Shown one piece after another: positions 48,136 through 50,462 of a DNA stretch of 64,000 nt. Source of the stretch: Candidatus Bipolaricaulota bacterium (GTDB lineage: Bacteria; Bipolaricaulota; Bipolaricaulia; RBG-16-55-9; DRXL01); NCBI GenBank assembly GCA_938091745.1, contig CALLJK010000009.1:94844-158843 (forward strand). Reading direction: 5' to 3'. Numbering within the stretch: position 1 is the first letter of the stretch; each line of letters opens with the position of its first letter. The position numbers were made by a program, and so were the translations under genes. The notes beneath the pieces are model-generated. The model was not told the DNA's origin and made no database searches. It saw only the letters and a list, made by a program, of their open reading frames with translations.

Positions 48136-48869
48136 CAGTCTCATACTCTCTAGACAATAAATATTTGCCGATAGACTATCGACGTGGCTTCGCATCGCTG
48201 CTCAAGGAATCACTCAAGAAAGCCAGCAACGAACTCTTCACGAGATACTATTCGAAATCTCATGTTCTAAAACCTTTCACTTTCTCTATCTATTTCCCTG
48301 AGCTTATAGGAGAGGAAGAAGGGCGCTTTAAAGTCGGCACTAGGGCTGTCCTTAATTTCTCAACTATATCTTATGAGCTAGGGGCCTACATTTACAACGG
48401 ACTATTAGATCATCGCTCGTTTCGCCTTTTTGAGAACTCAGCGCAGCTTATGCATATTACCCTGCGACCATCAGTTGTTATTCGCCAGGAATCAGCGATA
48501 TTTAAAACCATGGCCCCTATCTTGGTCAACAGCAAAGGGAGTGCTGAATGGTATCTCTTGCCAGGTGATGAAGGGTTTGCCCAAAGCTTAAACTTCTCCG
48601 TCAGAGAGCTCGCCCGTACCTTTTTAGGTAAGGCTGAGGTGCATATTGAGTTTCGGCCTATACGTATTCAGCGGAAGGTAGTGCGGCATTATAATATGAA
48701 CATGCAAGGTTTCGTAGGAGTGTTCGAATTGCGCGGCCACCAAGACGTGTTGAACTTAGTCTATCAAATTGGCTTGGGTGTGCGTCGCAGCCAGGGCTTT
48801 GGCATGCTGGAGCTGGTGCGCCAAGGGCCTTATTTAGAACAGGCTGCTTCAGGGGGGAGGCGCTCATGA
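48126..48869 (+). CDS. cas6: Cas6 paralog (copy b, low GC)
   Basis: MRLTVSYSL.., KPFTFSIYF, and C-terminal G-rich loop GLGVRRSQGFGMLELV. Markedly AT-richer than copy a. Overlaps both neighbouring genes. Confidence 0.75.
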   Translation: MRLTVSYSLDNKYLPIDYRRGFASLLKESLKKASNELFTRYYSKSHVLKPFTFSIYFPELIGEEEGRFKVGTRAVLNFSTISYELGAYIYNGLLDHRSFRLFENSAQLMHITLRPSVVIRQESAIFKTMAPILVNSKGSAEWYLLPGDEGFAQSLNFSVRELARTFLGKAEVHIEFRPIRIQRKVVRHYNMNMQGFVGVFELRGHQDVLNLVYQIGLGVRRSQGFGMLELVRQGPYLEQAASGGRRS

Positions 48870-49975
48870 GTGAGATTACTTTGTATCCGTCGAACTGGTT
48901 GTACAATGCGGGGGTGATTGGCTTTCTGGTTTCGCTTGAAGAAGTGGAAGAATTTGATATCGAAGATATAATGCTGCCCCAAAGCGGTGAACTTCGGATT
49001 CTACTGCCATTCTTTACGAACCTGCAAGTCGATAAACGCTACTTTGGAAAAAAGAAGATAGCTTCGATTGTAGGGAATAATAGGCTGTATAGAAATTATC
49101 TGCAAGCCAATCAAAAAAAGCTTTTTACTAAATTTGTTAAATCGCTTGATTCTGTAGGCTCCTTTGGTCGATGCGATGTGTGCGGGCAGGGGTGGTCACT
49201 GAAAGTCGATGACGTTGCTGAACTGAATAAGAAAGATCCAGGAAATGCTAAATTTCTGGACAGGATCAAGAACTTTAACATAGTTCATAACTCTATGATT
49301 GGACCATCAGTAAACGAGTTCCCCAATGCTTTTTGGAATCTTAGGCAGAGCGTAGCAGTATGCCATCTTTGTAGTTTTCTAATCATTCACCACCATCTCG
49401 CACTCACCCGTCTTTCCGATGGCTCAGAAATCTTCATCAATGCCCCGTCGTTCAAGGTGATGTACTATCTGAACAAGTTTGTCCGAGAAGCTTTCGGCGC
49501 ATCCTCGTCGCCAGAAGCGCGATCAAAAAGAGAGATCTTGGCGATGTCTGTGATCGAATATGCTACGAAGTTGCAAACGACCCTCGGCGTCTGGACAGGG
49601 ATGAATATCGAGGTGGTGAGCCGGCGGGGCGATGAGATCGAGTTCTTCAGCTTGCCCTATGAGGTGATTCAGCTCCTTGCGGACCGTAGGATCGCTTCGC
49701 TTCTTAGCCAAATCGGAGAGTTTACTATCCTGAACCTCCTTCTCACTCAGGATTTTTCTCGCTTGATGGAGATGGGGTATCGCCTCCTGCGGATTGGGCT
49801 GAAGCGTAATAGGGAACGGGGGAAATCAGAGAAGGACTTCGTGAATCAAAATTTGAGACTTGAGAAAAATAGAAAGAATCTTGCTGAGGTAGCCAGACAG
49901 ATTTTTAAACTTTTCGCTCTCATCGAAGAAAAGCGCAAAAGGAGGAATGCGTATGAGCACGCCAGTTTCATCTGA
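48866..49975 (+). CDS. Cas8b-like large subunit, unusually short (369 aa), with a zinc-finger-like motif
   Basis: It occupies the cas8 position between cas6 and cas7. Contains CDVCGQ..CHLCSF. Overlaps the downstream gene by 29 nt in a different frame. Confidence 0.5.
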   Translation: MSEITLYPSNWLYNAGVIGFLVSLEEVEEFDIEDIMLPQSGELRILLPFFTNLQVDKRYFGKKKIASIVGNNRLYRNYLQANQKKLFTKFVKSLDSVGSFGRCDVCGQGWSLKVDDVAELNKKDPGNAKFLDRIKNFNIVHNSMIGPSVNEFPNAFWNLRQSVAVCHLCSFLIIHHHLALTRLSDGSEIFINAPSFKVMYYLNKFVREAFGASSSPEARSKREILAMSVIEYATKLQTTLGVWTGMNIEVVSRRGDEIEFFSLPYEVIQLLADRRIASLLSQIGEFTILNLLLTQDFSRLMEMGYRLLRIGLKRNRERGKSEKDFVNQNLRLEKNRKNLAEVARQIFKLFALIEEKRKRRNAYEHASFI

Positions 49976-50462
49976 AGTGAGCTTAGAGGAAAAGCTACAG
50001 CAACTTGAAGAGCAATTAAAAGCGGGCACTCCTAACGCCGAGGAATTTCGCCTTGTTCACAATGAGCTGAAGAAGCTGAACCGCAGGCTTCAGGAACTCC
50101 TCCAGTGGGCTGAGGAACAGCATAGAGACGAAAAAGAATTTGAGAGTCTGCATCGCCAGGTAGCCGGCTGGAACGCTTCCGACCTCATGGAGAGCTTGAA
50201 GAAAACTGGCTTCGCCTCTAAGCAAGACCGAGACCTCAAAGATGCTTTTGATCGTCAGGGATATCGGATATTAGAGCTTGTGCGCGCAGGAAAACGAGAT
50301 GAAGTCTTCCACGCTATCTTACGCACTTTTGTGTCGGCAAAGAAGGAGTTTCCGGTCCATCTGGTGGAAGCGTTTAAGCCTGTCTACTCCGATGAGCTCT
50401 TCAAGGTCTTTCTGTTCTCCTTCCTGAGCGGCATCTTGGGTGAAGAGCGAGAGCAAGAGTAA
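49947..50462 (+). CDS. Cas11-like small subunit, separately encoded
   Basis: 171 aa, predicted all-helical and acidic/basic-rich. It has its own AAGGAGG Shine-Dalgarno sequence before the ATG. Sits in the cas8-cas7 interval. Confidence 0.5.
   Translation: MRMSTPVSSEVSLEEKLQQLEEQLKAGTPNAEEFRLVHNELKKLNRRLQELLQWAEEQHRDEKEFESLHRQVAGWNASDLMESLKKTGFASKQDRDLKDAFDRQGYRILELVRAGKRDEVFHAILRTFVSAKKEFPVHLVEAFKPVYSDELFKVFLFSFLSGILGEEREQE

Follow-up and report, generated by a model that had tools for sequence, protein, structure and literature searches.

The locus considered here raises the question of whether the small subunit of a type I-B CRISPR (clusters of regularly interspaced short palindromic repeats) effector complex, Cascade, may be encoded by a gene of its own. 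The stretch analysed, hereafter the window, comprises 64,000 nucleotides (nt) of a Candidatus Bipolaricaulota bacterium (assembly GCA_938091745.1, contig CALLJK010000009.1, positions 94,844 to 158,843, forward strand) and carries a cas operon in which cas8b, the gene of the large subunit, is directly followed by a small, overlapping gene. Type I-B has been said to have no stand-alone cas11 (PMC13199841, PMC11899642, bioRxiv 10.1101/2020.04.18.045682), canonical I-B Cas11 being produced by internal translation within cas8b (bioRxiv 10.1101/2020.04.18.045682). The product of the small gene is, judging from its sequence, very probably the Cas11b small subunit of an ordinary type I-B complex, and the split, out-of-frame arrangement of the two genes is the rule, not the exception, in this lineage of Cas8b.

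The small protein encoded behind cas8b

The two genes are read in different frames (coordinates modulo 3 of 2 for cas8b and 0 for the small gene), and a Shine-Dalgarno (SD) sequence, AAGGAGG, is located within the last codons of cas8b (Table 1). Two ATG codons follow it, at 49947 and 49953, with a spacing of 1 nt and 7 nt, respectively. The second one is most likely the start of cas11b, giving a protein of 169 amino acids (aa) and an overlap of 23 nt with cas8b, because the spacing to the SD sequence is then 7 nt, the homologues align from residue M3, and public gene calls (P0121) are 169 aa long. A preliminary description of the locus, made from the sequence alone, reported a helical protein with a strong SD sequence in a different frame, which holds; its length of 171 aa and overlap of 29 nt correspond to the less likely start at 49947.

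The assignment to Cas11b is based on the curated profiles of PADLOC-DB, which come from the cas profile set of Makarova et al. The small protein matches PDLC01193 ('Cas11b, CAS-I-B, effector_SS'; E 2.5e-62, residues 9-170 against positions 3-163 of the 164 in the model) and, over its full length, PDLC01190 ('Cas11b - Small subunit of some of I-B systems'; E 1.5e-40). It is a member of this family, sharing its size, its place after cas8b and its I-B context, with no detectable difference. The conserved core (profile positions of approximately 76-168) corresponds by homology to the domain at the C-terminus of fused Cas8b proteins, and the small protein also matches the C-terminal ends of two profiles of fused Cas8b, PDLC02050 (431-492 of 496) and PDLC01278. 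No Pfam or NCBIfam model was found for this protein, scans with these libraries giving only spurious coiled-coil matches (Rad50, VasL), and homologues of about 170 aa are labelled 'hypothetical protein' by their sources. The identical sequence is already present in NCBI, ENA and Logan.

An AlphaFold2 model of the small protein (predicted local distance difference test score of 87) consists of eight helices and has no strands. Several basic residues are conserved in the core of the homologue alignment (R107, R113, K116, R117, R126, K144 and K153), and they would fit a contact with nucleic acid.

Other observations weigh against the identification as Cas11b. A Foldseek comparison of the small protein with PDB gave no match at E < 1, and a search of PDB sequences with its profile found nothing; in structure it bears a modest similarity to Cas11. 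With an isoelectric point (pI) of 5.5 the protein as a whole is acidic, the segment of residues 93-165 having a pI of 8.3. It has an N-terminal helical hairpin of approximately 75 aa (residues of about 10-75) that is present neither in the fused forms nor in short stand-alone forms (loci L061 and L068), so that the protein may do more than a minimal Cas11. Finally, the name 'Cas11b' was itself given computationally in the profile set.

The modest structural similarity, the coiled-coil-like appearance of the additional hairpin and the acidic pI are what might be expected of a lineage-specific accessory or regulatory factor, such as an assembly chaperone, a recruiter of Cas3 or an anti-anti-CRISPR protein, rather than of the Cas11 of the minor filament. 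Such a role is nevertheless improbable, because the core is homologous to the domain that occupies exactly the Cas11b position in fused relatives and the operon contains no other candidate for a small subunit. Furthermore, the location of the small gene between cas8 and cas7 is essentially invariant among related loci, and an internal SD-ATG is found at the corresponding place of fused genes.

The large subunit and the type of the operon

The preliminary description recognised a Cas8-like open reading frame (ORF) of 369 aa with a CxxC..CxxC motif, and this ORF is indeed present. The motif is composed of the pairs C103-D-V-C106 and C166-H-L-C169, all four cysteines being invariant in an alignment of 59 homologues, and it is predicted to form a zinc finger. 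The protein matches PDLC01204 ('Cas8b CAS-I-B effector_LS') with an E value of 2.3e-127, residues 2-360 covering positions 2-337 of the 337 in the model. Older models, which span only the zinc-finger region, respond marginally: PF09706 is barely passed (21.2 bits with a cut-off of 21), and the score with TIGR01908 (Cst1) is below the cut-off (15.4 and 19.4 bits, respectively). The databases contain 603 homologues, mostly of 355-415 aa, for which the sources use the names Cst1, Cas8a1 or Cas8b1. Thus, the protein is short in comparison with Cas8b proteins of 500-700 aa, as had been remarked earlier, but its length is normal for its own family. In structure comparisons its fold was nearest to solved I-B Cas8b, the chains of which outscored I-A Cas8; profile searches of PDB sequences with the Cas8 and Cas11 alignments gave nothing meaningful. 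With Cst1 (TIGR01908 / PF09706 Cas_CXXC_CXXC; 'Cas8a1'/'Cas8b1') it has in common the N-terminal motif YPSNWLYNAGV and the two CxxC pairs; it differs in the marginal scores with the older models and in being shorter, since the Cas11 domain is encoded by a separate gene. The 369-aa protein is therefore the Cas8b (Cst1-type) large subunit of an ordinary type I-B complex.

One sub-lineage of homologues (P0045, P0053, P0061, P0073 and P0092; 458-471 aa) has an insertion of approximately 95 aa between YPSNWLYNAGV and the first CxxC, its C-terminal half being about 75% identical to the window Cas8; for at least some of its members the contig also carries a separate cas11. Cas8 homologues of 460-475 aa were considered as possible fusions with Cas11, which was ruled out, as they carry an insertion after the N-terminal motif and cas11 is still separate.

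The operon represents a complete type I-B (Tneap/Cst-like) gene set and is not of type I-A. In it, cas8b lies between cas6 and cas7-cas5-cas3, together with Cas1, Cas5 and Cas7 proteins of the I-B type. As one explanation of the two genes, an I-A-like organisation combined with an HD-fused Cas3 had been put forward initially; the fusion proved correct, and the I-A-like organisation did not. A system of type I-A, or an I-A/I-B hybrid, in which a Csa5-type Cas11 would accompany the HD-fused Cas3, is very unlikely here. Cas3 is one protein of 920 aa containing both the HD (TIGR01596, PF18019) and helicase (TIGR01587) domains and not a split cas3'/cas3'' pair, Cas1 passes the cut-off of the Cas1b (I-B) model, Cas7 and Cas5 are Cst2 and Cas5t, and the better scores of the solved I-B Cas8b chains point in the same direction. 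No match of the small protein to Csa5/Cas11a was obtained in Pfam, NCBIfam and PADLOC even at E <= 1, whereas the Cas11b profiles reach 1e-62. Membership in type I-A was rejected, since two of its defining features, a split Cas3 and a small subunit of the Csa5 family, are absent.

Split and fused forms among relatives

To place the arrangement among related systems, one genome per GTDB species was scanned with the Cas8 alignment, which yielded 80 loci, drawn from numerous bacterial phyla and some archaeal ones. All ORFs of these loci were searched with hidden Markov models of the two families; 5 loci end too soon after cas8, leaving 75 that could be evaluated. A separate Cas11b ORF out of frame with cas8 (frame +1 or +2) is found in 73 of them, and the remaining two are fused, so that the view of the small subunit as a discrete out-of-frame gene, expressed in the preliminary description along with the idea of comparing homologous loci for fused and split forms, is borne out. 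In all but two of the split loci (71 of 73) the small gene is the immediate downstream neighbour of cas8, either overlapping its 3' end or abutting on it. AGGAGG usually lies within the last cas8 codons of the split loci, and the position of the SD sequence is conserved in most of them as well as in the two fused loci (L075 and L079). Split loci belong to Ignavibacteria, Bipolaricaulota, Acidobacteria, Planctomycetes, Dictyoglomi, Atribacteria, Aquificota, Caldarchaeum and Thermoplasmata.

In two loci of WOR-3 and Hydrothermia (L041, 7149-9105; L047, 7182-9156), cas8 and the downstream cas11 are approximately 1.9 kb apart, and immediately upstream of cas11 there is another, short ORF with a match to the Cas8 profile. 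The gap looks like an insertion that left a fragment of cas8 beside cas11.

Each of the two fused loci has one ORF with the Cas8 profile in the N-terminal part and the Cas11 core (profile positions of approximately 78-168) in the C-terminal part. In L075 and L079 an ATG that is in frame with this ORF and follows AGGAG or AGGAGG is present 103 and 95 codons before the stop, respectively, which corresponds to the layout of canonical internal Cas11 translation. When the Cas11 profile was searched exhaustively against 1.84 billion representative proteins, 148 clusters were obtained. Stand-alone proteins of 210 aa or less make up 110 of them, and in about 30 the profile lies at the extreme C-terminus of Cas8 relatives of 434-658 aa. 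The initial idea that split and fused versions of the same pair exist is well supported by these longer proteins and by the SD-ATG at the fused boundary. Two of the fused proteins, P0334 (658 aa) and P0358 (519 aa), end with two tandem copies of the Cas11 core.

The C-terminus of the window Cas8 has no detectable homology to Cas11b when the two family alignments are compared by hhalign (probability 0.75%). A motif GYR[IL]L(R/E) is common to Cas8 (302-311) and Cas11 (103-112), being non-significant in hhalign; it could be due to chance or could be what remains of an old Cas11-like domain at the C-terminus of Cas8.

The history of the two forms was considered in a rough neighbour-joining tree of the Cas8 N-terminal region, midpoint-rooted and lacking support values and an outgroup, in which most fused forms are on deep branches and the split forms group in a single large clade that also encloses a few fused ones. 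This topology weakly suggests that the split is derived rather than ancestral, with occasional re-fusion. An ancestral split had been one of the two explanations suggested initially.

The breakage of a single cas8b gene by a frameshift (through an error of sequencing or assembly, or in a pseudogene) with no separate small product, which would agree with the summed length of 369 + 169 = 538 aa, equal to that of fused relatives, and with the resemblance of P0242 (527 aa) and P0292 (528 aa) to end-to-end fusions of both full profiles, has a negligible probability and was rejected on account of the conservation of the arrangement: it is identical in an independent assembly (L001), occurs in 73 species with two different frame offsets, includes in most split loci an own ATG with a properly spaced AGGAGG, and is matched by the predominance of stand-alone proteins among the representative clusters.

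Operon context, proposed function and significance

The features of the locus are listed in Table 1.

Table 1. CRISPR-Cas features of the window (positions counted from its first nucleotide)
Feature	Position	Strand	Details
CRISPR array 1	46555..46987	- (probable)	7 repeats of 30 nt, GTTTCAATACCACACTGGTTCAATTAAAAG on + strand; period 66-68 nt; repeat family D1 (repeat search)
cas6, paralogue 1	47356..48135	+	TIGR01877 E 3.7e-38; PF01881, PF21350
cas6, paralogue 2	48126..48869	+	TIGR01877 E 1.2e-31; the copy normally adjoining cas8 in related loci
cas8b, large subunit of Cst1/'Cas8a1' type	48866..49975	+	369 aa; ATG start; 42.6 kDa; pI 9.4
Shine-Dalgarno sequence AAGGAGG of cas11b	49939..49945	+	inside the 3' end of cas8b (K-R-R codons)
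cas11b, stand-alone small subunit (very probable)	49953..50462	+	169 aa; 19.8 kDa; N-terminus MSTPV...; alternative ATG 49947 gives 171 aa; frame +1 relative to cas8b
cas7 (Cst2/DevR type)	50484..51638	+	TIGR02585 E 3.3e-47; PF01905
cas5 (Cas5t/Cas5b)	51657..52502	+	TIGR01895 E 1.1e-35
cas3, HD nuclease and helicase in one protein	52447..55209	+	TIGR01587, TIGR01596, PF18019, PF22590
cas4	55279..55803	+	PF01930 E 3.7e-53
cas1 (Cas1b, I-B type)	56523..57521	+	TIGR03641 E 3e-139, 464 bits, above cut-off
cas2	57918..58181	+	TIGR01573; PF09827
CRISPR array 2	58451..58680	+	4 repeats CTTTTAATTGAACCAGTGTGGTATTGAAAC, the reverse complement of the array 1 repeat; repeat family D2

The two CRISPR arrays were not reported by Tandem Repeats Finder and were found by a separate repeat search. 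They flank the cas operon in mutually inverted orientation, the leader-side ends of both pointing toward the cas genes. Array 1 is probably transcribed from the minus strand, giving CRISPR RNAs with the handle ...ATTGAAAC; this orientation is deduced from the convention for the ends of I-B repeats. The last, outermost repeat of array 2 is degenerate (…GAAGC; …GTATTGAAGC). The two cas6 genes, arranged in tandem with an overlap of 10 nt, share only about 20% identity; one copy of each type is present in about 17 of the 80 related loci. The longest ORF of cas3 (920 aa) has 56 nt in common with the end of cas5, and the public call of cas3 at an identical locus starts 16 codons later, giving 904 aa. 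Between cas4 and cas1 there are a small ORF (55852-56070) and an ORF of a PIN-domain (VapC-like) protein (56067-56519), which match the PADLOC candidate defence family PDC-S70 with E values of 8e-07 and 2e-36, respectively, and constitute a toxin-antitoxin-like pair inside the adaptation module.

Among characterised systems, the internally translated Cas11b of type I-B (Synechocystis, PDB 8H67/8IP0; Haloferax; Thermotoga; McBride et al. 2020) has the same presumed role as the window Cas11b, and both use an SD sequence in the 3' region of cas8b; the core of the window protein shares homology with the domain at the C-terminus of fused Cst1-type Cas8b. The window gene differs in that it is out of frame and overlapping, its Cas8b itself being without C-terminal Cas11 sequence. 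Its product also differs in size, having 169 aa with the extra N-terminal hairpin as compared with approximately 95-135 aa for internally translated Cas11b. No match to the solved I-B structures was found for the window Cas11b at the sequence level. The stand-alone small subunits Cse2/Cas11e of type I-E and Csa5/Cas11a of type I-A have no sequence or profile similarity to it, and the window operon is of type I-B.

In the characterised I-B Cascade, Cas11b forms a belly of three copies which supports the non-target strand (PMC11096372), and Cas11b is required for the retention of Cas8b in the complex (PMC13199841). A similar mechanism may be proposed for the window system from the anatomy of the genes, the family, synteny and homology with the fused forms, the stoichiometry, assembly and DNA binding being taken by analogy. 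Cas8b would act as the large subunit recognising the protospacer-adjacent motif, while Cas11b would be translated in the +1 frame from its own strong SD sequence inside the last cas8b codons. Several copies of Cas11b might form the minor 'belly' filament facing the Cas7 backbone, which would steady the R-loop and the non-target strand and help to keep Cas8b in the complex, whereupon Cas3 would degrade the target. The separate start would permit the synthesis of Cas11b in excess over Cas8b, an equivalent excess probably being reached in fused cas8b genes via in-frame internal initiation.

A more speculative and rather doubtful possibility is that Cas8b of this large, mostly thermophile-associated clade has entirely lost a Cas11-like C-terminal domain of its own, so that the entire minor filament, including the position of the Cas8 C-terminal domain, would be built of free Cas11b, and the N-terminal hairpin, specific to the clade, may tether it to Cas8b or Cas5 or aid the recruitment of Cas3. 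If this is true, the architecture of the Cascade would be unlike any solved type I structure, and the clade, in which fused forms with an internal start occur beside split forms of short and long type, would represent a natural series for the fusion and fission of cas8 and cas11, the origin of which was left as an open question by McBride et al. 2020.

The stand-alone gene of the small subunit is real, but it is not a new kind of system, because its family is already included in curated CRISPR profiles (PDLC01193 and PDLC01190), and no new mechanism is revealed by it. No paper describing a stand-alone cas11 of type I-B was found in the open literature, nor was a biochemical or structural study of this Cas11b family found in the accessible literature. 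The value of the finding lies chiefly in annotation and engineering: public records still call the protein 'hypothetical', general annotation pipelines and recent papers (PMC13199841, PMC11899642) still describe I-B as lacking a separate cas11, and this gene cannot be left out when a Cst1-type I-B Cascade of these lineages, largely associated with thermophiles, is reconstituted. In addition, the occurrence of fused and split forms in one Cas8 family, with a ribosome-binding site at the same spot, makes it a comparative system for the separation or merger of the small and large subunits.

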